From contig CALGSW010000010.1 in the NCBI GenBank assembly GCA_937901965.1, positions 83,775-147,774 of the forward strand: DNA of 64,000 nucleotides, read 5' to 3'. Below the pieces are notes generated by a model. The model made no database searches, was not told where the DNA came from, and was given only the letters and a program-made list of their open reading frames with translations. Position 1 is the stretch's first letter. Each line of letters starts with the position of its first letter. The DNA comes from an uncultured Bacteroidota bacterium (GTDB taxonomy: Bacteria > Bacteroidota > Bacteroidia > Bacteroidales > UBA932). The position numbers and the translations under genes are program-made. This document shows positions 12,900 to 26,130 of this stretch, piece by piece.

Positions 12900-12907
12900 T
12901 ACTTTTG
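12900..12907 (+). promoter_or_regulatory. -7 promoter box for the uORF-TBDR unit
   Basis: TACTTTTG (TAnnTTTG) right after the terminator and 14 nt before the ATG at 12922. Confidence 0.65.
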
Positions 12908-12921
12908 CGCTCTGCTGATTT

Positions 12922-13272
12922 ATGGAACAGATTAGAAAAAGTTTTCTAAAATATCTTGTCTTAATATCGTTTATCACTTATTATAGTGGTGCTACGATGT
13001 TTTATCATGCACACATTCAGGGAGACGGTAAGATTGTCCATTCTCATTTTTATCTTACAGGTGATGCCTCAGCTCCATCCCACTCCCATTCAAATTCATC
13101 TCTTTCATTACTAGCTCTATTACTTTCGTCATTAAATTTTATAGTTTCATCTCTGTTATTACAGTCTGTATACAATAAAATACAATCAATTATCAGTATC
13201 AGTGATCAGCGAAAGCCATCATTATACTTTAATTTACAAATTCAATCAAGGGCACCTCCGGCAGTTAGTTAG
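12922..13272 (+). CDS. His-rich membrane-type leader ORF with a C-terminal RAPP motif (candidate arrest peptide, analogous to DUF2946/CruR)
   Basis: Two hydrophobic segments flank three HxH motifs; the protein ends QSRAPPAVS; it has its own promoter box and lies 46 nt upstream of a TBDR gene. Confidence 0.75.
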   Translation: MEQIRKSFLKYLVLISFITYYSGATMFYHAHIQGDGKIVHSHFYLTGDASAPSHSHSNSSLSLLALLLSSLNFIVSSLLLQSVYNKIQSIISISDQRKPSLYFNLQIQSRAPPAVS

Positions 13273-13318
13273 CTTGCTATAATTAAATTCTTCAACTAAC
13301 TAATTAACATATATTTAA

Positions 13319-15622
13319 ATGAATTTTAAAAATATTTATTTAACAATAATCATATTGTTATGCTATGGTGTTGTAAAATCACAGCCAAATTCAAACAAAG
13401 ACAAGATATCTTCAATAGCGGGTCACATTATTGAAAAAGAGACAGGAGAGCATATACCATTTGCCACAATAAAGATAGAAGAACTGCGAATAAACTTTTC
13501 AGCAGATGCATCGGGACATTTTCACAGAAACAATATTCCGTCAGGAAGATATAAATTCAGTGCATCTGCGCTAGGATACTTAATAAATGATACTATTATA
13601 GAAATTCAACCAGGCAGATTATCAACAATAAACTTTGAAATGAGCCAGAGCTCGTTTAATGTTGATGAAGTTGTTGTTACTGCAACGAGAAATGAATCCA
13701 AGAGAAAAGAATCCCCTTCTGTTATAAACGTTATAGGTAAGAGGTTGTTTGAACAATCAGCTTCAACGAACCTGAGTCAGGTTCTAAATTTTCAGCCGGG
13801 TGTAAGAGTTGAGGTTAGCTGCCAGAATTGTGCTGTCACTCAGGTTAGAATTAATGGTCTTGAAGGTCAATATTCTCAGATTTTACTTGACAGCAGACCT
13901 GTTTTCAGCTCACTGGCAGCTGTATACGGTATAGAACAACTTCCTGCAAGTATGATTGAAAGAGTAGAGGTTTTAAGGGGCGGTGGTTCTGCTGTATTTG
14001 GCTCAAATGCTATTGGAGGGGTTATTAATATAATAACAAAAGAACCAATTAAAAACACTCTCTCAATTTCAAATCAAACCGGTTTAACTGGTAAAGGTTC
14101 AATGGATTATACAACTTCATTAAATAGTTCGTATGTTACTAGTGATTTTAATACAGGTGTTTATCTATTTGGAATGATAAGAGACAGATCTCCTTATGAC
14201 AGAGATGGAGATGGATTTAGCGACATACCTGTTCTGGATGCTGAAACTATCGGTTTTAGAGGATATCATAAGTTTGCTCCAAATTCAAAACTAACATTGG
14301 AGTATCATCATATGAACGAGTTCAGAAGAGGTGGAGATTCTCTTTCTAAACCTCCGCATGAGGTGACCGTTGCAGAGCAGGTTAAACACAAAATTAATGG
14401 AGGTGCAGCAAAATTTGATGTAAACTCAAAAGATTATAAACATAAGATTTCAATATTTACTGCAGCTCAAAAAATTGGAAGAGACAGTTATTTTGGAACG
14501 AATAAAGATTATAACGCATACGGAAGAACTGATGATATTACAATCTCAGCAGGTACACAATACTCAACTCAAATAAAGAGACTAATATTTATGCCCTCGG
14601 AATTTACGGCAGGGTTTGAGTATAATTATAATTTTCTTAAAGATGCAATGCTGGGATATGATCGGATCTTAGAACAAGAAGCAATAACATTTGGTGGTTA
14701 TATACAGAATGAGTGGAAAAGTGAAAATGTTAGTGTCTTAATAGGTGCCAGGCTGGATAAAAATAATCATGTTAGTAAACCAATATTTTCTCCCAGACTC
14801 AATTTAAGGTATACTCCAAAGGAGAACCTTATTTTTAGGGGTAGTTTCTCCAGCGGTTACAGAGCTCCTCAAGCCTATAGTGAAGATCTCCACGTAGAAG
14901 CAGTTGGTGGATATGTAACTTTAATAGTAATTGATCCATTGCTAAAACCAGAATATTCAAATAGCTTAAGCGCATCAGCCGACTACTCCTTCTTTGCCGG
15001 GCCGATTCAGATGAATCTATTGGCTGAAGTTTTTCATACTAGTTTAAAGGATGTCTTTGCTCTTGAGGCAATTGGCAGAGATGAGGCGGGAAATATCTTA
15101 CTACTTAGAAAAAACGAAAAAGGGGCATTAATATCTGGTGCTAATATTGAATTAAAAGCAAATTATGGTAATTCTCTTTCTGCACAGGCCGGTTTCACAG
15201 TTCAGTCCAGCAGATATAAAGAGCTTTATAAATGGTCAGAAGATCCTAGCCTAACAGCTGATAAGCGCATGCATAAAACTCCTGGAAAATACGGTTATCT
15301 GACAGTTTCCTGGAACCCTTATACTCGTTTTAATACTTCATTCACATGTGTTTATACTGGTAGTATGTTAATGCCGCATTTTGCCGGTTATATTGACAAG
15401 GACAGACTACAAGTAACGCCTTCATTTCTTGATCTAGGTATAAAATTTTCATACGATATAAATATAAGTGGCGACCATATTATTCAGTTAAACGCAGGAA
15501 TAAAAAACTTTTTGGACTCTTACCAAACAGATTTAGACAGAGGTGAATTCAGAGATGCAGGATATGTATATGGACCGGGTAATCCCAGAACCTTTTTTGC
15601 AGGAATTAAAATTGATTTATAA
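13319..15622 (+). CDS. TonB-dependent outer-membrane receptor (CirA-like, not SusC type)
   Basis: Signal peptide; carboxypeptidase-regulatory-like N-domain (IIEKETGEHIPFATI); TonB box EVVVTATR; plug motif ERVEVLRGGGSAVFGSNAIGGVINIIT; SCQNC in the plug; C-terminal RTFFAGIKIDL beta-signal. Confidence 0.93.
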   Translation: MNFKNIYLTIIILLCYGVVKSQPNSNKDKISSIAGHIIEKETGEHIPFATIKIEELRINFSADASGHFHRNNIPSGRYKFSASALGYLINDTIIEIQPGRLSTINFEMSQSSFNVDEVVVTATRNESKRKESPSVINVIGKRLFEQSASTNLSQVLNFQPGVRVEVSCQNCAVTQVRINGLEGQYSQILLDSRPVFSSLAAVYGIEQLPASMIERVEVLRGGGSAVFGSNAIGGVINIITKEPIKNTLSISNQTGLTGKGSMDYTTSLNSSYVTSDFNTGVYLFGMIRDRSPYDRDGDGFSDIPVLDAETIGFRGYHKFAPNSKLTLEYHHMNEFRRGGDSLSKPPHEVTVAEQVKHKINGGAAKFDVNSKDYKHKISIFTAAQKIGRDSYFGTNKDYNAYGRTDDITISAGTQYSTQIKRLIFMPSEFTAGFEYNYNFLKDAMLGYDRILEQEAITFGGYIQNEWKSENVSVLIGARLDKNNHVSKPIFSPRLNLRYTPKENLIFRGSFSSGYRAPQAYSEDLHVEAVGGYVTLIVIDPLLKPEYSNSLSASADYSFFAGPIQMNLLAEVFHTSLKDVFALEAIGRDEAGNILLLRKNEKGALISGANIELKANYGNSLSAQAGFTVQSSRYKELYKWSEDPSLTADKRMHKTPGKYGYLTVSWNPYTRFNTSFTCVYTGSMLMPHFAGYIDKDRLQVTPSFLDLGIKFSYDINISGDHIIQLNAGIKNFLDSYQTDLDRGEFRDAGYVYGPGNPRTFFAGIKIDL

Positions 15623-16363
15623 GTCTAATGCTCTGCTCATTGCATCATATCCCATTTTAAATATTATATCCACTTTTTTAAGATCAAAAGTTTTAAATTG
15701 CATAGCGCTCTCAACTTCAACAAGGATATCACACATCTTTTTATCCTCCAGAGTATTTGCTCTGAACATAAAGTGATATGAACGCTCTGCAATTCCAACA
15801 ATATTCTTTGAGTATTTTTCAGTGACGAGGGGGCTTGCGTTGACGCCAATAACTTTATCGCATTCACCCCTTATTACTGAAACCGGGAAATTTTTAAAGA
15901 TCCCGCCGTCTGCATAAAGCTTACCGTTAATCTCAACAGGGTTAAATATAACCGGAACGCATGCAGATGCAGTAATTTTTTTTATTAACTCTCCTTCAGA
16001 GAATACTTCATACCTGCCATCATCAAGATTTGTAGCAACAACTTTTACAGGTATTTTTAACTCCTCAAATGTTTTTACAGAAATACTCGATTTAAGAAGT
16101 TTAATAAAACCTGTAGGTTTGAAGAGTCCTTTATTGGGAATATTTAATTCTACGAAGTAATTAAAATCCTTATCGTTGAATAGTTCAACAATTTTTTCCG
16201 GAGAATTTCCACCAGCATAAAGAGCAGCTACAATTGCTCCTGCACTTGTACCTGCAATAATATCCGGAATTATGCCTCTCTCTTCAAGAGCTTTGATTGC
16301 TCCCGCATGAGCAAATCCTTTTACACCACCTCCAGATAAAACAAGCCCTAAAGGATATTTCAT
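15617..16363 (-). CDS. Patatin-like phospholipase
   Basis: SGGGVKG (GxGxxG), GTSAG nucleophile elbow and DGG motif. Confidence 0.93.
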   Translation of the reverse strand: MKYPLGLVLSGGGVKGFAHAGAIKALEERGIIPDIIAGTSAGAIVAALYAGGNSPEKIVELFNDKDFNYFVELNIPNKGLFKPTGFIKLLKSSISVKTFEELKIPVKVVATNLDDGRYEVFSEGELIKKITASACVPVIFNPVEINGKLYADGGIFKNFPVSVIRGECDKVIGVNASPLVTEKYSKNIVGIAERSYHFMFRANTLEDKKMCDILVEVESAMQFKTFDLKKVDIIFKMGYDAMSRALDL

Positions 16364-16366
16364 TGC

Positions 16367-17623
16367 TTAGCTGATAGTAAAGAAAAATCTGGCTCCTTTG
16401 CCTATTTGTGATTCAGCCCACACACTGCCACCATGCCGCTCAATAACTCTTTTTACTGTTGATAAACCAACGCCGGTTCCACTGAAATCATCACCATGAT
16501 ACCTGACAAATGGTTTAAATAATTCATCTGCTTTATCTGAATCAAAGCCCGCTCCATTATCTTCAACACAAAAAACCACACTTCCCAGACTCTCTTCTGA
16601 ATAAAATTTAATTACCGGAGAAACAGTTTTTGAACTGTATTTAACAGCATTCCCCAACATATTATCTAATACAATACGGATTAAATTTGGGTCCGCATTT
16701 GCTTTGAGCCCGTCTTGTATTTCAATAGTTGGTTTAACCTCCGAGTATCTCAGTAAAAGATTATCTATTACATCTCTTGCCATGCTTGAAAGATTAACAT
16801 CTTCTCTTCTCAGCTCGGTTGTTCCGGATTGTGAAAATGCTAGCAAATCTTTGATGAGTTGTGCCATCTCCTCTGCCGAATCCTTTATGTATCCCATAAA
16901 CTCCTTATCATCTGAAGACATTTTACTGTCTGGATTATCAAGCATTGCAGATGCAAACCCCATTATTACAGAGAGGGGTGATCGCAGATCATGGGAAACA
17001 GAACGCGAAAATGATTCCAAATCACTGTTTGCCTGCTTAAGTTCAGTGTTAGATCTCTCTAGTTGTAACTTTATATCTGTAAGTTCATTGTTTCTTTTTG
17101 TTGCGGTCTCATAAACAGAGATTAGAAGATCAATAATTTGTCTTTTGGAAGATGTTATGGAGTATTCGTTACCTCTGAATTTTAATCTGATAACGTCATT
17201 ATCTCTTATCTCTGTTGCAATCTCTGCATTTATTAAAAGATGTTCGATTCTTTCCAGTATCTCTCTCTCCTCATAGGGCTTTGTAACAAAATTATCAGCT
17301 CCACACTGCAGCCCTTTGATAATATCGTCAGGATCTTGAAGTGCAGTGAGTAGCATTACCGGAATATCCTTTAATTTATCATCAGCTTTTATTTTACTGC
17401 AATAACCAAAACCATTCATTCCAGGCATTATGACATCACTTATAATTAATGCCGGCTTTGAAAGACAAATTGCTTCATAAGCATCTGATGCATTGTAAAA
17501 GATTTTGTATTTTATTTCGTTCTTCTTAAACAGATATTCAAGTCGTTTTGCCTGGACCAATGAATCTTCAGTCGCAACAATATGTCTGTCTCCAAGTAAT
17601 CTTGATATACTGCTATTGCTCAT
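16367..17623 (-). CDS. Receiver-histidine kinase hybrid (REC-HisKA-HATPase), putative output of the chemosensory operon
   Basis: REC (IISDVIMP, FVTKP), H-box SHDLRSPL, NAVKYS, DNGAGFD, GTGVGLSTV. Confidence 0.9.
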   Translation of the reverse strand: MSNSSISRLLGDRHIVATEDSLVQAKRLEYLFKKNEIKYKIFYNASDAYEAICLSKPALIISDVIMPGMNGFGYCSKIKADDKLKDIPVMLLTALQDPDDIIKGLQCGADNFVTKPYEEREILERIEHLLINAEIATEIRDNDVIRLKFRGNEYSITSSKRQIIDLLISVYETATKRNNELTDIKLQLERSNTELKQANSDLESFSRSVSHDLRSPLSVIMGFASAMLDNPDSKMSSDDKEFMGYIKDSAEEMAQLIKDLLAFSQSGTTELRREDVNLSSMARDVIDNLLLRYSEVKPTIEIQDGLKANADPNLIRIVLDNMLGNAVKYSSKTVSPVIKFYSEESLGSVVFCVEDNGAGFDSDKADELFKPFVRYHGDDFSGTGVGLSTVKRVIERHGGSVWAESQIGKGARFFFTIS

Positions 17624-18693
17624 TTTATATAAATATGATTTAGTTTTCTTGCAATTTCATCTGGATTGAGTACAGCACAGGCAGCTCCAAGTTTAAGAGC
17701 TTCTCCGGGCATACCATAAATTAAAGCAGAGCTGATATCCTGAATAAATGTAAAAGCACCGGTGTCTTTCATGAATTTTAATCCTGATGCTCCATCTCGT
17801 CCCATCCCCGACAGAATTATACCAACAGAGTTTTCACCGTAATATTTTGCAATACTTTTAAAAAGAATATCAACAGATGGTTTGTGAAGTGAATCAATAT
17901 CATTCCCGTTCAATATTGAAATAACTCCATTTTCAATAATCATGTGAGAATCGGGTGGGGGTATATAAATTTTACCGGATAAAGGCTTCTCTCCATTAAT
18001 CGCTATTACTGCTTCAATATTTGAAAAGGTATTAATCCATGTTGTAAATCCCTGTATAAAATTTTGGTCAATGTGTTGTATTAAAAGAATGGGTAACGGG
18101 AAATTTGGAGAGATTTCTGTAAGTAATGTTTTTAAAGCCTCGGGACCACCGGCAGAAGCACCTATTGCAACAATCCTGGCATTCACATTTATTTTACAGG
18201 TTTCGCCAACTGTTGTCATTGATTTTTTTAAATCAAGATTGTATGCTTTACCATTATTGCTCCTTCTTACAACCTTGACTTCTGCCATTAATTTAATTGA
18301 GTTTATGTATTTTACTGCTGATGATTCAAAAGTTTCATGACCTGGACCATGAGGTTTTGGCAGTACCATTACAGCACCTGCCTCTAGCTCACGAATGGCT
18401 GTAAGCACATCATTATCACGATATATGCTACTAACAATTATGACAGGTGCCGGGCATAAACTCATAATTCTTTTTGTAGCTTCAATCCCATCCATTACGG
18501 GCATATTAATATCCATGCTTACTACATCCGGCTTGTGCTTCATAGCCATTTCCACTGCCTCTTTCCCATCTGTTGCCGTAGCAACTACATCAATCATTGG
18601 ATCTTCAGACAGGATACCGGCGAGTAACCTTCTACCCACAGAAGAGTCGTCTGCAATTAATACCCTTATAGGTGATCTGATCTCCTTTTTCAT
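17620..18693 (-). CDS. cheB: Chemotaxis response regulator/methylesterase CheB
   Basis: N-terminal REC (SMDINMP); catalytic GASAGGP (Ser), IQHI (His), KPSVD and ILSGMGRDGA (Asp); YGMPGEA. Confidence 0.95.
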   Translation of the reverse strand: MKKEIRSPIRVLIADDSSVGRRLLAGILSEDPMIDVVATATDGKEAVEMAMKHKPDVVSMDINMPVMDGIEATKRIMSLCPAPVIIVSSIYRDNDVLTAIRELEAGAVMVLPKPHGPGHETFESSAVKYINSIKLMAEVKVVRRSNNGKAYNLDLKKSMTTVGETCKINVNARIVAIGASAGGPEALKTLLTEISPNFPLPILLIQHIDQNFIQGFTTWINTFSNIEAVIAINGEKPLSGKIYIPPPDSHMIIENGVISILNGNDIDSLHKPSVDILFKSIAKYYGENSVGIILSGMGRDGASGLKFMKDTGAFTFIQDISSALIYGMPGEALKLGAACAVLNPDEIARKLNHIYIK

Positions 18694-18703
18694 CCCTAAA
18701 ATG

Positions 18704-20833
18704 TTAAATCAATCTTCTTATAGTATCTGTAAGGTTACTCTTCTCAAAACTTCCTTTAACTATATATGCATTTGCACCTGCATCTAACCCTCTTTGCATA
18801 TCTTTAGGAGACTCAAGTGTTGTTACCAAAATTACAGGTATTTCTGAATATCTGCTATCTCCACGGATTTTAGTTGTTAGTTCAAAACCATTCATATTTG
18901 GCATCTCAATGTCCGTTACCACAGCATCATAAGTTGTTTCCTGAAGCATTTTATATGCTTCAACACCATCAACAGCAACATCTGTTTCGTAACCTGCATT
19001 TTCCACAATACTTTTAAGCATGCTCCTTACAGTTATTGAGTCCTCAACGACCAGGATTCTCTGTTTTTGATCCAAAGTAGTTGTAATTTTGGAGGTGTCA
19101 GTGAAACCTCCAAAATCTCCTCCGGTAGCCCCTTCAATAAGTTCATTGACGTTAACAACAGGGATCAGCACTCCATTGCCCACCATTGTAACGCCTGTAA
19201 TTTTTTTTATACCTTTCAACTGTTTCCCAAGTGGTTTGATAATACCTTCAACCTCTTCAATAATTTTATCAACTTTAAAGGCCATCCTTTTATGATTAGA
19301 ATTAAGAATGAGTGCAGGTTTAAATTTTGAATCGTTTTGAACAGTTTCAGTAAGTCCCAGAGATTTACCTAAATCCATAAGTCCTACGTAATCACCGGAA
19401 ATAAGTACAGATGTCCTGTGACCTGAGTTAATTATTTCACTATCAACTACTCCAATAACTTTTTCAATAAAATTTGATGGGATAAGAAATTGCTGATTGA
19501 AACTTGTAACTAATAAACCTCTGAACGTGGCAATCGTCTGAGGTATTTTAATTATAAACTTAGTCCCTTTACCATACTCAGAGTCAACAGAAACTGTTCC
19601 GCCAAGATTGCATATTTTCTCAGAAACAATTGCCATCCCAAGCCCTCTGCCGGAAATTTCAGTAATCATATCGCTGGATGAAACTCCAGAAGAAAATATC
19701 AGGTTCATCTTTTCATGTGAAGAAAGAAGTTCAGCCCGCTCGTGATCAATAATACCATTCTTGATTGCAGATTTTATAACCTTATCAATTTTTATTCCTC
19801 CTCCATCATCACAAACTGATATTGATAGTTTTGCATCAGCATCCTTTGATATTACTATTGAGATTTTGCCAGTAGTAGACTTCCCTGAGAGAGATCTCTC
19901 TTTGGGACTCTCTATTCCATGATCTGCACAATTCCTGATTAAATGGATAAGAGGGTCTTTCAACTCCTCAAGTATACGTTTATCAATTTCATAGAAATCT
20001 CCTTTAATCTCAACCTCAATCTCTTTTCCATTATCTCTAGTCAGGTCTCTGACAACTCTTGGAACAATATTTAAAATAGTTGAAAAAGGCAAAAGAAGTG
20101 TTGACTTTACATCAATTATTATATCATCAACCATCCTGTTTGCAACATGAATAAATCTGGTTAAATCTCCATAAAGATATTCCAGTTTATCATCTTTAAT
20201 TCTGACTCTGATTTCTTCCAGCTCACTTTTATAAAAGGCTAAAGTTGTTTTAAAAGCTATGAAATCTTCACTTTGGGCCAATATTTTATTTAGTTTCTGA
20301 GATGAAATCCTAATAGTTTCGCTTTCTGTTTCAACCTTTTTTGGGACTTCAAGGATTTGGGTATTCTCTTTTCCTGATGTTTTTTGTTTTGTTATTTGTG
20401 ATTCATTTTCTTCTTTTTTTACAACTTCTTTGTGGATGAATTCAAGATTCTTGATTAATAAAGGAAGATTTGGAAGCTTTCTTTCTGTTCCGCTCTCTTT
20501 TATATTTGATAGCATAAACCGTAATGAATCTACTGATTTATGCATAACATCAAACAAAGAGTTAAAGAGACTTCCTTCACCATTCTTAAGGGAGCTCATC
20601 ACGTTTTCCATAAGCATACAGATCTTTTCTGTATCAGTAAGGTTAACAGCTCTAGCAGCACCTTTTAAAGAATGGGTCTCTCTATAAACTTTTTCAAGAA
20701 CTGATTTATCCGGATTTTCACTTCCATTTTCCAGTACAATTAAACCTTCGTCAATAGAAGAAAGATGTTCTTCAGCCTCAATTTCAAAATCCTGAAGCAG
20801 TTCCCGTAAAAGCTCATCCTGGTTAATTGCCAT
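18704..20833 (-). CDS. cheA: Hybrid CheA (Hpt-dimerisation-HATPase-CheW-REC), WspE-like
   Basis: Hpt YRETHSLKGAA, HLIRNCADHGIE, DDGGGI, SGRGLGMAIV, CheW domain and C-terminal REC (VVTDIEMP). Confidence 0.95.
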   Translation of the reverse strand: MAINQDELLRELLQDFEIEAEEHLSSIDEGLIVLENGSENPDKSVLEKVYRETHSLKGAARAVNLTDTEKICMLMENVMSSLKNGEGSLFNSLFDVMHKSVDSLRFMLSNIKESGTERKLPNLPLLIKNLEFIHKEVVKKEENESQITKQKTSGKENTQILEVPKKVETESETIRISSQKLNKILAQSEDFIAFKTTLAFYKSELEEIRVRIKDDKLEYLYGDLTRFIHVANRMVDDIIIDVKSTLLLPFSTILNIVPRVVRDLTRDNGKEIEVEIKGDFYEIDKRILEELKDPLIHLIRNCADHGIESPKERSLSGKSTTGKISIVISKDADAKLSISVCDDGGGIKIDKVIKSAIKNGIIDHERAELLSSHEKMNLIFSSGVSSSDMITEISGRGLGMAIVSEKICNLGGTVSVDSEYGKGTKFIIKIPQTIATFRGLLVTSFNQQFLIPSNFIEKVIGVVDSEIINSGHRTSVLISGDYVGLMDLGKSLGLTETVQNDSKFKPALILNSNHKRMAFKVDKIIEEVEGIIKPLGKQLKGIKKITGVTMVGNGVLIPVVNVNELIEGATGGDFGGFTDTSKITTTLDQKQRILVVEDSITVRSMLKSIVENAGYETDVAVDGVEAYKMLQETTYDAVVTDIEMPNMNGFELTTKIRGDSRYSEIPVILVTTLESPKDMQRGLDAGANAYIVKGSFEKSNLTDTIRRLI

Positions 20834-20838
20834 TTGAA

Positions 20839-22341
20839 TTATAAGTTGTATTTAATTATAATAGTCTTCAAATTTCGTCCGAGCTGATGGATTTTTTGAG
20901 CAGTGTCCTGAGTGTGATTAATTCCAACAACATTTTGTTCGCTAGCCCGTTTAATATTTTCCATCGCAGGGACAATCTGATCCATACCTGCCATTTGCTG
21001 CCTGGTAGAGGATGAAATTTGAATTGCGGCCTCAACTGCATCTTCAACATTGTCGGCTAATATATCTATAACCTCACCACTCTCTTTAACTCTCCTGATT
21101 CCCTCCTCAACACTTTTAGCCCCTTGATCTGTAACGCCAACTGTAGAATTCACCGACTTGTTAATTTCATTCAAAATTTCTTTAACTTGTTGAGTCGCTC
21201 TTTTTGACTGGTCTGCCAACGAGCGTATCTCCTGAGCCACAATAGTGAATCCCCTTCCATGTTCCCCTGCTTTCGCTGCTTCAATTGCTGCATTCACAGC
21301 AAGTAAATTTGACTGATCAGCAATATCCGCAACAGTAGAAGTGATTTCAGCAATTGTCCTGTTTTGCTCTGATAATTTCACAACAGTATCTGAAATGAGA
21401 TGCATTTGATTATCAATATGCTGAATAGCAGATGTAAGCTTCTTTATGGAGTCTCTGCCTTTATCTGCTGAATCAGAGGCTTTTTGAGAACTCTCCATCA
21501 GAGATTGAGCTTTCTGATTTGATACATTTGCAGTCTGCCTTACCTCCTCAATTGTTGTAGTTGTTTCAGTAACAGCAGTTGCAGTCTCAGCTGCACCTGC
21601 TGAAATCTCTGTTACAGCGCTCAAAATATCAGATGATGCATTTCCCAGAATTTCTACTCCAGCTTTAATCTCGGCTGTTATTTTTCTAACTATCCTTAAA
21701 GTCCAGATAGCAATTGCAATAACCAAGAAAACTAAAATGCTGCCTAAAACAAGTAGTTGCCATACTACAATATTTTCAGCTTTCTCGCTAAGAGCATGAG
21801 TTTTAGCCTTCATTTCTAACAAATTTAACTCAATCTGTATTGACTTTTCACGAATTCTCTCATATAAAAGATCTTGCTCCTCTGAAACAACTTTTTTTGC
21901 ATCATCTGTTCTACCTTCAGATATCAGTGTCATCATGATTTTCCGATTTTCAACGTATTTTTCAACGTCAATTTTCAAATCACTCATTAAAATTTCCTGA
22001 TCTGGATATGCATTTAACATACTATCAAGCCCGTTAGTTTTTTTCAGTATATCTATATGTTTCTGTTCAATTTTTTGCTTAAAGTCAATATTGTTAAGTT
22101 TTTCAGGATAAAATAGAGCTTCAAGGCTTAGTGCCCTAAGTCTGTTTTCGTCTGCTCTTAAACCTGTCAATTCATATGCAAGCGTGTCAAGAAGTGAATT
22201 TTCTTTTACAACATTGCTCATTCGTCGGTGATTTGTGTAAGAGATTATGGAGAAGAGTATTGTAGCAACAACTATTACAACAAACCCAATAATCATCTTG
22301 CCTCTGGTTCTAAGTCTTAAGAAGTTTTCCATATTATTCAA
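20839..22341 (-). CDS. Transmembrane methyl-accepting chemotaxis protein
   Basis: TM1 at about aa 16-35, helical periplasmic domain, TM2 at about aa 191-215; hairpin tip QSNLLAVNAAIEAAKAGEHGRGFTIVAQEIRSLA. Confidence 0.95.
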   Translation of the reverse strand: MNNMENFLRLRTRGKMIIGFVVIVVATILFSIISYTNHRRMSNVVKENSLLDTLAYELTGLRADENRLRALSLEALFYPEKLNNIDFKQKIEQKHIDILKKTNGLDSMLNAYPDQEILMSDLKIDVEKYVENRKIMMTLISEGRTDDAKKVVSEEQDLLYERIREKSIQIELNLLEMKAKTHALSEKAENIVVWQLLVLGSILVFLVIAIAIWTLRIVRKITAEIKAGVEILGNASSDILSAVTEISAGAAETATAVTETTTTIEEVRQTANVSNQKAQSLMESSQKASDSADKGRDSIKKLTSAIQHIDNQMHLISDTVVKLSEQNRTIAEITSTVADIADQSNLLAVNAAIEAAKAGEHGRGFTIVAQEIRSLADQSKRATQQVKEILNEINKSVNSTVGVTDQGAKSVEEGIRRVKESGEVIDILADNVEDAVEAAIQISSSTRQQMAGMDQIVPAMENIKRASEQNVVGINHTQDTAQKIHQLGRNLKTIIIKYNL

Positions 22342-22849
22342 TAATTATTTTTTTATTTTCAGTTAAAGCTTTCCCATTTAAAATCAATGCACCTGAATCA
22401 CAAATCCCGGAGATAAACTCTTTATAAAGGCTATTGTAATTATCAGGTACATCTGAAATTGCCGATATTAATTTTTCAGAAAATCCCAGTATTTCATCCG
22501 CCACTATTCCAAATTCAATATCACCATTTGAAATGATAATTAATTTATTTAGCTCAGAAAGTCCATATTCTTTAGATGATAAAAAACGGTTAATATTTAC
22601 TGCGGAATAAATAATCCCCCTGATATTTGCAACACCCACAACAAAGTCTGGAGTCCCCGGAATTGTAGTAAAGGAGCCAACTCTTACGACCTCTTTAATC
22701 CACTTATTCTCTATTGCATATGTTTCTTTTACTACCCTGAATACTAAGTAATTGACGCTATCAAAATGATCTTTAATAATAATTTTTTTAGCATTCTGTT
22801 TAGCCCTGCTCTTTAATAAAATTTTATCCCTGTTCATTTTGTGGTTCAA
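22334..22849 (-). CDS. cheW: CheW adaptor (WspD-like position)
   Basis: LVFRV...YAI...IKEV, IPGTPDFVVGVANIRG, FGIVADEILG. The start may be the ATG at 22837. Confidence 0.9.
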   Translation of the reverse strand: MNHKMNRDKILLKSRAKQNAKKIIIKDHFDSVNYLVFRVVKETYAIENKWIKEVVRVGSFTTIPGTPDFVVGVANIRGIIYSAVNINRFLSSKEYGLSELNKLIIISNGDIEFGIVADEILGFSEKLISAISDVPDNYNSLYKEFISGICDSGALILNGKALTENKKIIIE

Positions 22850-24290
22850 TAAGTTTAATTACCATCTGTTTTAATCGCTCCTTGTTCATACCACCGGTAA
22901 CCTTGATAATATCATCATCTTTAATTTTTTCAGTAATCTGAATTACATTTCTGTAGTGAATTGATGCAGCCCTCTTATTCCCCTCATTATTTAAAATATT
23001 ACCTAGCATAAGGTGAGAAAGCAGATGCTCGGGATTTAAGTACAAACCTTTTCTAAACATTTGTTTAGCCTCTTCAATCTCTTTCAGTTCTGTAAGAACT
23101 GTTCCATAAAGGTAAAAAATATCGTCTGATGAAATATTCTTTGATATTAATTTATCCAACACAAAAATTGACTCCTTGTACTTTCCTGTATTTGCATAAC
23201 TTCTTGCCAGGAAGCTTAATAAAGTACTGTCTTCATTACCTTTTTCAACCTCCTTTAAAGCAATATCTATACATTTTGAATATTTTCCTTCCGAATATAG
23301 TAGCTCAAGTTCACTATTTAGAAAAGATGTATCAATTACCTCTGATTTAATGAATTTTTCAACAGATTTTTGTTGTCTCGGCAGTTTTACAGAAACATGT
23401 GAATTATGCAAAGGTTCTTTTAAAATATGGAAATTGGTTCTCTTAATATTTATGTTGCTGTTTTTTGAATAAAAAACGCCATCATCAAAGTATGACTTTG
23501 TAAAATGGCCAAAAAAAGTGTCGTTTAGCTCTACCTGACTTGTTATCAGCCATCCACCCTCGTTTAATATGTTAAAAAAGCGCTGAGATATATTCTTAAT
23601 TAATTCTTGATTCAGATACATTAAAACATTCCTGCAGAAAATAACATCAAGATACTTCTCTTCTGGGTCCTCGCCAGGAAATGAATCAACAGCAAGATTC
23701 AAATATTCAAATTGTACCAGCTCTTTAACTGAATCAGAAATTTGATAATTATCCCCAATTTTTAGGAAAAATTTTTTTATATAATTTTCAGGAATTTCTC
23801 TGAACGACCACGGAGTGTATAATCCTTTTTTAGCCTTAGCGATTACATTTGGATTTAAATCTGTTCCAACTATTTTCACACTGCCTTTTGGGATATAGGG
23901 GAACATCTCTAAAAGTATCATAGCCAGAGTATACGGTTCCTCTCCGGAGCTGCAGCCAGCACTCCATATCCTAATCACATCTCCCTTTTTCTTTTTAATA
24001 AGTTCAGGAATAATTGTTTTACAAAACATATTGATTGCAGGCTTTTCCCTGAAAAAATATGTTTCATTAACTGTAAGATGCGAAGCAAGCACTTTTCTCT
24101 CATCTGGTGTGAACTTTCCCCCAAATAGTGTTACTTTTGAGTTAAAAGAGTCAATGTCAGCATATCCAAGTGTTTGGACGGCCTCTCTTAAATGCCTTGA
24201 GAATTCCTCAACGCGGTTTGCCTGATAGGCCAGCCCCATTGATGATTCAATTAGTTTAGCCAGATTATGTATTGATCCTTCACACTTCAT
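22824..24290 (-). CDS. cheR: CheR methyltransferase with C-terminal TPRs (WspC-like)
   Basis: LTVNETYFFRE, IWSAGCSSGEEPY, GTDLN, DVIFCRNVLMY; C-terminal TPR repeats (ARSYANTG, FRKGLYLNPEH). Confidence 0.95.
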   Translation of the reverse strand: MKCEGSIHNLAKLIESSMGLAYQANRVEEFSRHLREAVQTLGYADIDSFNSKVTLFGGKFTPDERKVLASHLTVNETYFFREKPAINMFCKTIIPELIKKKKGDVIRIWSAGCSSGEEPYTLAMILLEMFPYIPKGSVKIVGTDLNPNVIAKAKKGLYTPWSFREIPENYIKKFFLKIGDNYQISDSVKELVQFEYLNLAVDSFPGEDPEEKYLDVIFCRNVLMYLNQELIKNISQRFFNILNEGGWLITSQVELNDTFFGHFTKSYFDDGVFYSKNSNINIKRTNFHILKEPLHNSHVSVKLPRQQKSVEKFIKSEVIDTSFLNSELELLYSEGKYSKCIDIALKEVEKGNEDSTLLSFLARSYANTGKYKESIFVLDKLISKNISSDDIFYLYGTVLTELKEIEEAKQMFRKGLYLNPEHLLSHLMLGNILNNEGNKRAASIHYRNVIQITEKIKDDDIIKVTGGMNKERLKQMVIKLIEPQNEQG

Positions 24291-24741
24291 TTGAATATAG
24301 GTTTCTTACAGTCTCCTCTTCCTCCTTACTAAGTAAATTCTCAGCGTTGTAGATATAGTAAATACAATCTGATTTAGTAAAAAATTCAAGTTCACTCATT
24401 CCCGGGAGTATATCCTTGTAAAATTTAATATCAGACATATTAATTACCTCTAGACCTTCAATACAATCTGCAATTAATGCAACCTTTATACTTTTGAAGG
24501 AGATTATTAAAAAGAAGCAAGAAGAGGTCAGATCAGTTTCAGGCAATGAAAATCTTCTTCTTAACGAAACAACCGGGATAACTTCACCATGTAAATTAAT
24601 TAATCCCATTACATTGCCTTCCGGATTGTTATATGGAATAATTTCCTGAGCAAGTATAACTCTGTTGATCATATCAACAGGGAAAGAAAACTTAAGATCA
24701 GATATGGTAATTAAAAGTACGTTAAGTTGATCTTGATTCAT
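24280..24741 (-). CDS. cheW: CheW adaptor (WspB-like)
   Basis: GLINLHGEVIPVVSLRRRF, VALIADCIEG. Start moved to the ATG at 24741; the upstream extension would run into the divergent gene. Confidence 0.88.
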   Translation of the reverse strand: MNQDQLNVLLITISDLKFSFPVDMINRVILAQEIIPYNNPEGNVMGLINLHGEVIPVVSLRRRFSLPETDLTSSCFFLIISFKSIKVALIADCIEGLEVINMSDIKFYKDILPGMSELEFFTKSDCIYYIYNAENLLSKEEEETVRNLYSNEV

Positions 24742-24791
24742 ATTGTTCTTAAATACATCGGTAAATATAAACAAAAGATTTGTAAACTTTT

Positions 24792-24813
24792 CTTTATAAC
24801 TAATGTTATAAAG
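24792..24813. promoter_or_regulatory. Perfect inverted repeat, candidate operator between the che operon and hemerythrin-LuxR
   Basis: CTTTATAAC-TAAT-GTTATAAAG: 9-bp arms with a 4-nt spacer in a divergent intergenic region. Confidence 0.45.
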
Positions 24814-24814
24814 C

Positions 24815-25540
24815 ATGTTAATGGATTTAAAGATGTCTGAATTTTTTACTGTTGAGAGGAAGCTCTCATCAATAGTTGAAGAGAATTTTAAAATTGTAAG
24901 AATACTTAAAAGATTTGGGATAATGCCCGGATTTGGGGAAAAGAGTGTAAAAGATGTTTGCGCTGCCTACACTATCTCTCCTCAATTATTCCTTACTATT
25001 GCAAACATGACCACTTTTAATGACTATGTACCGGATATTGAGTATGTTAAACAACTGCCAACGCTTCAGCTTGTAAATTATCTAAAAGCATCACATAGTG
25101 AGTTTATTATACGGGATATACCTTTAGTAGAGAATTCAATAAATGAAATTGCAGCCAGCAAAGATTTCTCAGACTCACATTCTTCTGTATTTGTGAATTT
25201 CTTTAAAGAATACAAGTCAGAACTTTTATCTCACTTTGATTATGAAGACAGGACAGTGTTCCCATATATTTCAAGCATTACTGAAGGGAAATCTTATCCA
25301 GGATACTCAATTGAGAAGTTTGAAGAAAATCATACTAATATAGAATCAAAGATCAGTGACTTAAAAAATATACTCCTTAAGTATTTTCCATCGGTCAAAC
25401 CTCATCCTCAACTATATGATTTGATTGAGAAGCTCTATATTCTCCAGGCTGAATTTGAAAATCATGCAAATCTTGAAGACAGAATCCTTGTCCCTCATGT
25501 AGAGTATCTTGAGCTAATTTCAAAATCAGAAAAGAGATGA
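24815..25540 (+). CDS. Hemerythrin-like/RIC (YtfE/ScdA-like) di-iron protein
   Basis: His/Glu pattern ASHSEF, SHFDYED, ENHTNIE, ENHANLED; N-terminal ScdA_N-like segment without the CC motif. The true start may be 24833. Confidence 0.8.
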   Translation: MLMDLKMSEFFTVERKLSSIVEENFKIVRILKRFGIMPGFGEKSVKDVCAAYTISPQLFLTIANMTTFNDYVPDIEYVKQLPTLQLVNYLKASHSEFIIRDIPLVENSINEIAASKDFSDSHSSVFVNFFKEYKSELLSHFDYEDRTVFPYISSITEGKSYPGYSIEKFEENHTNIESKISDLKNILLKYFPSVKPHPQLYDLIEKLYILQAEFENHANLEDRILVPHVEYLELISKSEKR

Positions 25541-26130
25541 AAAAATCAATATGTTTAGCTATTGTAGATCCATCACTTTTGATTAGGGAGGGCCTTTCGA
25601 AAGTAATTAATGATGCTTCCTCTCTTTTTTACCCTTTGTTGAAATTTGAATCTGCTGAACATTTTTTAGGTCATAACTCAAGTGAAGGATCTTTTGTTTT
25701 AATTATAAATCCAGTTTTATTACATGGCGATGCTTCTTTAATTAAAAAGATTAAAGAGAATGAATCCGATTCAAAGATTGTCGCACTAATCTCTGCATGT
25801 GTACCTCAATCTCTTTTGGCCGGTTTTGATACATCCATTAATATTTATATGTCTGGCTCTCAAATTACTCATATCCTTAGGAATATTGCTGAACCGGATG
25901 AAGATGTGAAGAATGATTCAAATTTAGAACAGTATGATCTATCTGAGAGAGAAAACGAGATTTTAGTAATGGTTGCAAAAGGAAAAACGAATAAAGAAAT
26001 TGCCCAGATGTTTAACATTTCTGTTCATACAGTCATGTCTCACAGAAAGAATATTGCAAAAAAGACCGGAATAAAAAGTATATCCGGTCTGACCGTGTAT
26101 GCAATGCTTAATGGATTAATTGAGAATTAA
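25537..26130 (+). CDS. LuxR-family regulator with an atypical receiver-like N-domain
   Basis: C-terminal LuxR HTH LSERENEILVMVAKGKTNKEIAQMFNISVHTVMSHRKNI; ATGA overlap with the hemerythrin gene. Confidence 0.9.
   Translation: MKKSICLAIVDPSLLIREGLSKVINDASSLFYPLLKFESAEHFLGHNSSEGSFVLIINPVLLHGDASLIKKIKENESDSKIVALISACVPQSLLAGFDTSINIYMSGSQITHILRNIAEPDEDVKNDSNLEQYDLSERENEILVMVAKGKTNKEIAQMFNISVHTVMSHRKNIAKKTGIKSISGLTVYAMLNGLIEN

Follow-up and report, generated by a model that had tools for sequence, protein, structure and literature searches.

A Bacteroidota chemosensory operon, probably of the alternative cellular function type, that ends in a second histidine kinase, in a genome without markers of motility

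To place a chemosensory gene cluster within an uncultured Bacteroidota bacterium, we analysed a 64-kb stretch of DNA (hereafter the window), which lies on contig C10 of a 2.31-Mb genome assembly in 16 contigs (94% complete). The window carries an intact seven-gene chemotaxis-like signalling operon, which is probably a chromosomal pathway of the alternative cellular function (ACF) class, belonging to a Bacteroidota-specific lineage and having as its output a second histidine kinase and not a motor-binding CheY. Chemosensory arrays have mostly been studied as steering devices for flagella. A complete, adaptation-capable array that feeds a second kinase in a small-genome Bacteroidales without a detectable motility machine would provide a clean non-motile case of the poorly studied ACF class. 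More than one-third of the sampled genomes of the order carry CheW and about 3% carry this particular subtype.

An intact seven-gene operon

The open reading frame (ORF) listing and Pfam searches confirmed seven co-oriented genes on the minus strand, running from 24741 to 16367, as follows.

24280..24741, minus strand: cheW-1, first gene; 153 aa; Pfam CheW, E = 6.9e-17; starts at an internal ATG at 24741
22824..24290, minus strand: cheR with C-terminal TPR; 488 aa; Pfam CheR, E = 5.1e-50; TPR_8, TPR_2 and TPR_1 at residues 350-455
22334..22849, minus strand: cheW-2; 171 aa, TTG start; Pfam CheW, E = 9.9e-22
20839..22341, minus strand: MCP; 500 aa; Pfam 4HB_MCP_1 and MCPsignal
18704..20833, minus strand: hybrid cheA; Pfam Hpt, HATPase_c, CheW and Response_reg
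17620..18693, minus strand: cheB; Pfam CheB_methylest, E = 1.8e-55, and N-terminal Response_reg
16367..17623, minus strand: terminal receiver-histidine kinase (REC-HK); 418 aa; Pfam Response_reg, HisKA and HATPase_c

The junctions between these genes range from a 26-nt overlap to a 10-nt gap, with the REC-HK gene overlapping cheB by 4 nt, and the Pfam domain E-values of 1e-12 to 1e-55 over seven adjacent genes are far past chance. In NCBIfam, no family scored above its cut-off for any of the seven proteins. The longest ORF for cheW-1 spans 24280-24816 and would run into the divergent gene at its start; we placed the start at the internal ATG because homologues are 153-155 aa long. The second CheW gene is kept at the same operon position in about 60 related loci.

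The residues on which signalling would depend are in place throughout. CheR has the SAM motif AGCSSGEE at residues 111-118, and CheB has the receiver aspartate D61 together with S180, H207 and D300 inside GASAGG, QHI and GRDG motifs. In the hybrid CheA, in which Pfam detected no P2 domain, we located H54 (Hpt), the N-box (301-306), the G1 (342-346) and G2 (395-399) boxes and D641 of the C-terminal receiver, and the terminal REC-HK has D63 in its receiver, H211 in its DHp domain, and N and G boxes. In homologue alignments H54 and D641 of CheA and D63 and H211 of the REC-HK are invariant, as are the CheA N, G1 and G2 boxes, and overall the catalytic and phospho-acceptor residues are kept across 44-81% identity. 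The preliminary description of this DNA had listed the same tightly coupled gene order with intact catalytic residues, all of which was recovered by Pfam and the residue check; it had also noted the lack of a stand-alone CheY, and the window indeed contains no stand-alone REC protein.

Hydropathy and motif positions indicate that the MCP has a first transmembrane segment at about residues 16-34, a periplasmic four-helix-bundle sensor at 35-190 and a second transmembrane segment at about 191-217; no HAMP domain was detected in it by Pfam. Its cytoplasmic signalling domain measures about 283 aa and has its hairpin tip at E360; EE/QQ pairs lie at residues 265-266 and at 448-449. Residues 221-469 align almost without gaps to the Thermotoga maritima receptor TM1143/2CH7, with one offsetting pair of single-residue gaps.

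The only chemosensory cluster in a genome without motility markers

The whole genome holds exactly three CheW domains, all of them within the operon, and one MCP, which makes the operon the genome's only chemosensory cluster. We found no match in the genome to FHIPEP/FlhA of flagellar export, no match to GldJ, and for T2SSE-family (PilB/PilT-type) ATPases a single 20-bit match below the cut-off; at 94% completeness, these absences are strong but not absolute. In an even sample of 401 genomes (236 genera) from the order (Bacteroidales as GTDB defines it), the GldJ model matches 304 and therefore works in this order, while none of the five sampled members of the window's family gave a match. Since the FlhA, type IV pilus ATPase and GldJ markers are all absent, a host without flagella, type IV pili or gliding, and with it a non-motility output of the pathway, is well supported, in line with the earlier view of a non-flagellated host and of a window without flagellar or pilus genes.

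The ACF class of chemosensory systems was reportedly defined by Wuichet and Zhulin in 2010. Its core of MCP, CheA and CheW is complete in the operon by Pfam, and the operon shares the trait of not being tied to flagellar or type IV pilus genes. Further traits that match are the CheR-TPR, the hybrid CheA-REC without P2 and the multidomain receiver output, which fit published descriptions of the class (PMC3447774, PMC10782961). In a MiST-based table the 784-aa CheA of N. multiformis is listed as cheaACF, as are CheA-REC proteins from Bacteroidota (PMC10782961). A locus from N. multiformis in our own set (L039) has the same operon order and encodes a CheA that is also 784 aa long and 37% identical to that of the window. 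Membership of the ACF class is thus indirectly supported by architecture, genome context and likeness to N. multiformis. The ACF/Wsp-like architecture named at the outset (two CheW, a CheR-TPR, a hybrid CheA-REC, one MCP, a CheB and a multidomain receiver protein in last place) was found as described.

The terminal kinase and a proposed route of phosphate

An AlphaFold2 model of the REC-HK, built with 12 orthologues (mean pLDDT 78.5), places a REC domain at residues 15-138, a low-confidence beta-hairpin at 145-156, one long helix at 158-229 that continues into the DHp domain, where H211 lies, and lastly the CA domain. Orthologues from different phyla share the segment FRGxxYxITSxKKQILDLLLSVYExA, which according to the model corresponds to the hairpin and the start of the long helix and not to a separate globular domain.

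For the two ends of the pathway, we infer that the single transmembrane MCP would sense a periplasmic or envelope signal via its four-helix-bundle domain and that the final target would be a non-motility trait. In between, the MCP and the two CheW proteins would control autophosphorylation of the hybrid CheA at H54. From there phosphate may pass to D61 of CheB, which with CheR-TPR would provide methylation-based adaptation; to D641 in CheA's own receiver, which would serve as a sink or as a modulator; and to D63 in the receiver of the terminal REC-HK. By analogy with CheA3 and CheS3 of Rhodospirillum centenum, phosphate would flow in the direction from CheA to REC-HK. Phosphorylation of D63 would then switch the kinase/phosphatase state of the DHp-CA core (H211) through the long connecting helix, and the REC-HK could thereby set the phosphorylation of a response regulator encoded elsewhere, with gene expression, the cell envelope or polysaccharide production as examples of the trait affected.

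Distribution across the order and beyond

CheW domains occur in 144 of the 401 sampled genomes (36%) and in 104 of the 236 genera, and full-length orthologues of the 418-aa REC-kinase (42-52% identity) in 13 genomes (about 3%) from six families. In a sister genus within the same family, che genes were found in none of three genomes. Eight carrier loci that we inspected keep the order W-R-W-MCP(-MCP)-A-B-HK wherever the sequence reaches, while the flanking genes vary by family and include an alpha-galactosidase-like protein, TypA, PDH E1, serine dehydratase and GAPDH. Because the flanks differ between families, we take the conserved unit to be the seven genes ending with the REC-kinase. More widely, most of some 80 loci spread over many phyla show W-R-W-MCP-A-B with a REC-kinase after it, and REC-HK orthologues of 411-438 aa occupy the same operon position in several phyla.

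A literature search returned no experimental work on the chemosensory systems of this Bacteroidota clade. The earlier remark that such arrays are rarely described in the phylum accordingly holds for the searchable literature but not for genomes, given CheW in 144 of 401 genomes of the order and ACF-class CheA from Bacteroidota already present in MiST-based tables.

Several further observations were made in the same loci. Some Bacteroidales relatives (L006, L099 from genome G001, and L100 from genome G223) have two tandem MCP genes in the operon, one of them 70-72% identical to the MCP of the window, and in genome G347 (L103/L104) a second paralogue of the REC-kinase lies some 9 kb away from the operon. 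The same W-R-W-MCP-A-B-kinase operon is present on contigs binned as Methanoperedenaceae and ANME-2 archaea (L010, L017) and on a contig labelled Klebsiella pneumoniae (L061), the CheA of which groups with Comamonadaceae; these copies represent either cross-domain spread or mis-binned or mislabelled contigs. In a phylum survey, CheB methylesterase domains were found in 210 of 401 sampled Bacteroidota genomes, many of them in ORFs of 1000-2300 aa. We set this count aside as a measure of array prevalence, as ORFs above 1000 aa are too long for a plain CheB and are probably fusion proteins.

A stable chromosomal resident within a Bacteroidota lineage

The operon has a GC content of 0.350, close to the ~0.355 of the 64-kb window, against a genome mean of 0.401 (3.8th percentile of the genome). 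The low value extends over the second half of contig C10 (~70 kb, GC 0.35-0.37, the whole window included), a half that also contains clpC and purF according to the first-reading annotation, and the first half lies at 0.38-0.405. Low GC on C10 is thus a regional trend, with no island boundary at the operon.

The same seven genes are found in 'Bacteroidetes bacterium 41-46' (L085; CheA 70% identical), on a 2.43-Mb contig (L087; 52%) and in a genome of the same genus (G152; 48%). Their flanks are shared in part with the window: an Fe-ADH gene lies upstream in L085 and L087 as in the window, a patatin gene lies directly downstream in L085, L087 and G152, and pentose-phosphate genes come next in L087 and G152, with small indels. 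A fourth related assembly (L005) shares flanks as well, and the CheA identities over the four are no more than 48-70%. No transposase, integrase or flanking tRNA was seen at the operon borders. Because the GC content equals that of the flanks, relatives have the same flanks, and integrase, transposase and bordering tRNA are absent, we regard the operon as a stable chromosomal resident and not an assembly artefact. An attempt to find an 'empty site' in the che-less sister genus was given up, as the patatin query matched only genes of 36-39% identity at contig ends or on a 2.9-kb contig, where gain and loss cannot be separated.

In an unrooted tree of 94 CheA sequences, which is silent on whether Bacteroidota first gained the system horizontally, the CheA of the window belongs to a clade of 22 members (SH-aLRT 100). 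Those that have a name are all from Bacteroidota, and the source names of the others are Bacteroidales, Rikenellaceae or Paludibacter. A long branch parts this clade from the CheAs of Pseudomonadota, Thermodesulfobacteriota, Acidobacteriota, Verrucomicrobiota, Ignavibacteriota and others; most of the non-Bacteroidota loci in the tree have the same operon order, and four further CheAs labelled as Bacteroidota are placed elsewhere. For eight genomes, a tree of concatenated CheA, CheB and REC-HK agrees with the RpoB tree with one exception. Judged from these few genomes, vertical descent and loss, together with at least one transfer from one family to another, could account for the operon's history in the order.

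The preliminary description had favoured horizontal acquisition and had proposed a CheA tree to find the donor. We found no positive evidence for acquisition in GC content, which matches the flanks, in the shared synteny, or in the tree, where CheA is nested in an all-Bacteroidota clade. It was right that mobility genes are lacking, and no compositional break accompanies the operon either; a chimeric contig, which it had raised as a possibility, is contradicted by the same flanking genes in independent assemblies. As for a cluster common and vertically inherited across Bacteroidales, the other possibility raised there, che clusters are indeed common, whereas this exact subtype is sparse (13/401), and among the nine genomes compared inheritance looks vertical bar the one conflict.

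Points against the pathway and alternative explanations

Three sets of observations weigh against the reading of the operon as a non-motile ACF-type pathway of a Bacteroidota-specific lineage: the search for a partner regulator, the exception in the concatenated tree, and an association with gliding that is given below with the explanation it favours. Across the genome we counted 25 kinase ORFs and 19 receiver ORFs (18 REC domains by Pfam), the regulators among the receivers comprising two of the OmpR type, two of the NtrC type, three of the LytTR type and two single-domain proteins. With several orphan regulators in this census, adjacency gave no unique candidate for the partner. Conserved neighbourhood gave none either, as what lies downstream of the REC-kinase varies from one family to another. 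In 12 of 74 related loci the REC-kinase is followed by a single-domain receiver, as in Che3 of R. centenum, and similarity to these receivers was a generic 28-41% identity, with C7:51733 often among the top matches but not decisively so. In the concatenated tree, the exception is G223 (family f95), which is sister to G001 (f2); the approximately unbiased (AU) test rejects the RpoB grouping (p = 3.7e-5), for a group that was picked after the tree was seen.

The region around receiver C7:51733 has features of its own. The genome's only two single-domain receivers, C7:51733 and C7:56648 (124 and 121 aa), flank a second REC-HisKA-HATPase paralogue of 374 aa within contig C7:51733-57013, where the paralogue lies between genes for UDP-glucose 6-dehydrogenase and UDP-glucuronate decarboxylase. 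This cluster may form a phosphorelay tied to polysaccharides and could supply candidate partners for the che-linked kinase.

Directly downstream of the operon lies one further gene on the same strand.

15617..16363, minus strand: patatin-like phospholipase; Pfam Patatin, E = 4.2e-41; begins 3 nt past the kinase stop

This gene is probably co-transcribed with the operon. In L085, L087 and G152 a patatin gene likewise begins 5-18 nt past the REC-HK, and in L005 it comes immediately after it. The phospholipase could then be the real effector arm in this genus, through which the pathway would directly control membrane lipid remodelling. We consider this unlikely: five other families and other phyla have unrelated genes at that position (alpha-galactosidase-like, TypA, PDH E1, GAPDH), the protein has no receiver or other signalling domain by Pfam, and its position may be plain local synteny. 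Membership of the patatin in the signalling system is doubtful because the adjacency is seen only in close relatives. Similarly improbable is the reading that, in this family without marker genes for flagella, type IV pili or gliding, a methylation-adapting array was retained to feed a two-tier kinase cascade whose effector arm includes the patatin, so that an environmental signal would lead to remodelling of membrane lipids or the envelope; if true, no such output has been described for a Che-like system.

A second alternative is that the array steers, or once steered, gliding or another surface motility linked to type IX secretion (T9SS), and is left over or rewired in the window's lineage. 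CheW is commoner in GldJ-positive genomes of the order, with 127 of 304 against 17 of 97 GldJ-negative genomes (odds ratio 3.4, Fisher p = 1e-5); put the other way, GldJ is found in 127 of the 144 CheW-bearing and 177 of the 257 CheW-free genomes. GldJ is also present in eight of the 13 carriers of the REC-kinase subtype and absent from the other five. These are raw genome counts that ignore phylogeny, and the genome of the window is one of the 17 CheW-positive, GldJ-negative exceptions. GldJ is missing from this genome, from all five sampled family members and from three subtype carriers of family f2; congeners with a CheA of just 48% identity keep the operon whole, all catalytic residues included; and the output is a kinase and not a CheY-like protein. 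Steering of gliding, past or present, therefore seems quite unlikely here, with a small chance that such arrays are linked to gliding in other lineages and not in that of the window. The association itself bears on how, or whether, gliding Bacteroidota perform chemotaxis.

That the operon is a decaying, non-functional relic would agree with the lack of a motility target in the genome and with the che-less sister genus (0/3), and is very unlikely given seven open frames, catalytic and phospho-acceptor residues kept over the range of identities given above, and gene order and lengths conserved across families. Finally, that the operon came in recently on a genomic island, or is a chimera of assembly or binning, is highly improbable and largely refuted: the low GC relative to the genome mean, the patchy subtype and the one inferred intra-order transfer speak for it, but the entire ~70-kb half of C10 is equally low in GC, independent assemblies, including the 2.43-Mb contig, share the flanks, and the borders lack transposase, integrase and tRNA.

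Upstream and neighbouring genes

24742..24832, no strand: intergenic region of ~91 nt between cheW-1 and a divergent hemerythrin/RIC-like gene, presumed promoter region of the operon; starts inferred from homologue lengths

No promoter motif was confirmed in this region and no notable internal minus-strand terminator was found by the sigma-70 and terminator scans; the former gave 37 sites against 37.8 expected, using the sigma-70 consensus, from which Bacteroidota promoters differ. Divergent from the operon at 24815-26130 (plus strand) are two genes that overlap each other by 4 nt. The first encodes a hemerythrin/RIC-like di-iron protein of 241 aa and the second a FixJ/NarL-like LuxR regulator, in whose receiver-like half both acidic pocket and acceptor Asp have been lost (AIVDPS, IINPV). 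Both genes also occur in the 70%-identical relative (L085) and are absent in the 52% relative (L087). Further along the window, a 116-aa ORF at 12900-13319, upstream of a TonB-dependent receptor, is conserved, as a gene of 116 aa is also called at the corresponding place in the 70%-identical relative (L085:17629-17979).

Comparison with known systems

The Wsp system of Pseudomonas (WspA-F, WspR) is the archetype of the ACF class. It shares with the operon two CheW homologues, a CheR, a hybrid CheA-REC, a CheB, a single dedicated MCP and the lack of a CheY. Its output WspR is a REC-GGDEF protein for cyclic di-GMP (c-di-GMP) synthesis, whereas the output here is Response_reg-HisKA-HATPase_c with no GGDEF match by Pfam, and its gene order is MCP-W-R-W-A-B-R, whereas here the MCP is fourth (W-R-W-MCP-A-B-HK). 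In a survey that identified systems by synteny, Wsp turned up in beta- and gammaproteobacteria only (PMC8552884). The label 'Wsp-type' in the preliminary description hence fits as far as the two CheW, CheR, hybrid CheA, CheB and one MCP are concerned, but fails on gene order, on the missing GGDEF output and on the host, which is not a beta- or gammaproteobacterium; the operon is not Wsp in the strict sense.

Of the systems studied so far, those most like the operon are Che3 of R. centenum, with its step from CheA3 to CheS3, and the Wsp 'H-system' of Burkholderia. Che3 has the same parts, namely one MCP, two CheW, CheR, CheB, a hybrid CheA that ends in a receiver, and a second kinase that begins with one; its output is cyst formation, a non-motility trait, and CheA3 phosphorylates the CheS3 receiver while only CheS3 phosphorylates CheY3 (PMC3868531). 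CheS3 is a REC-REC-PAS-HWE_HK protein, however, compared with one REC, a HisKA core and no PAS here, and CheY3 is encoded inside the Che3 cluster, whereas the genome's two stand-alone receivers are on contig C7. R. centenum belongs to another phylum, and the likeness is at the level of the parts list.

The H-system of Burkholderia cenocepacia (WspA-F plus WspH) shares a Wsp-type core and a receiver and histidine kinase output without GGDEF, the output being a match at the domain level only. WspH works with a distant regulator, RowR being implicated, and the phenotype is a non-motility one, c-di-GMP-independent biofilm (PMC8552884, PMC4324302). The wspH gene is a separate unit upstream of a wsp operon in which the MCP gene is first, whereas here the kinase is last and the MCP fourth, and H-systems have been found only in Burkholderia and other betaproteobacteria, whereas the host here is a Bacteroidales.

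At a broader level, cheR-TPR genes are found mainly in ACF clusters, and about 40% of the receiver proteins of these clusters carry a HisKA-HATPase module (PMC3447774), which is exactly the design of the operon. The surveys of CheR-TPR and ACF systems listed Chloroflexi, Cyanobacteria, Proteobacteria and Archaea, with Bacteroidetes not among them. A receptor array that feeds a second kinase is therefore a design already known, and its occurrence in this Bacteroidota lineage is a solid find that will not surprise a specialist.

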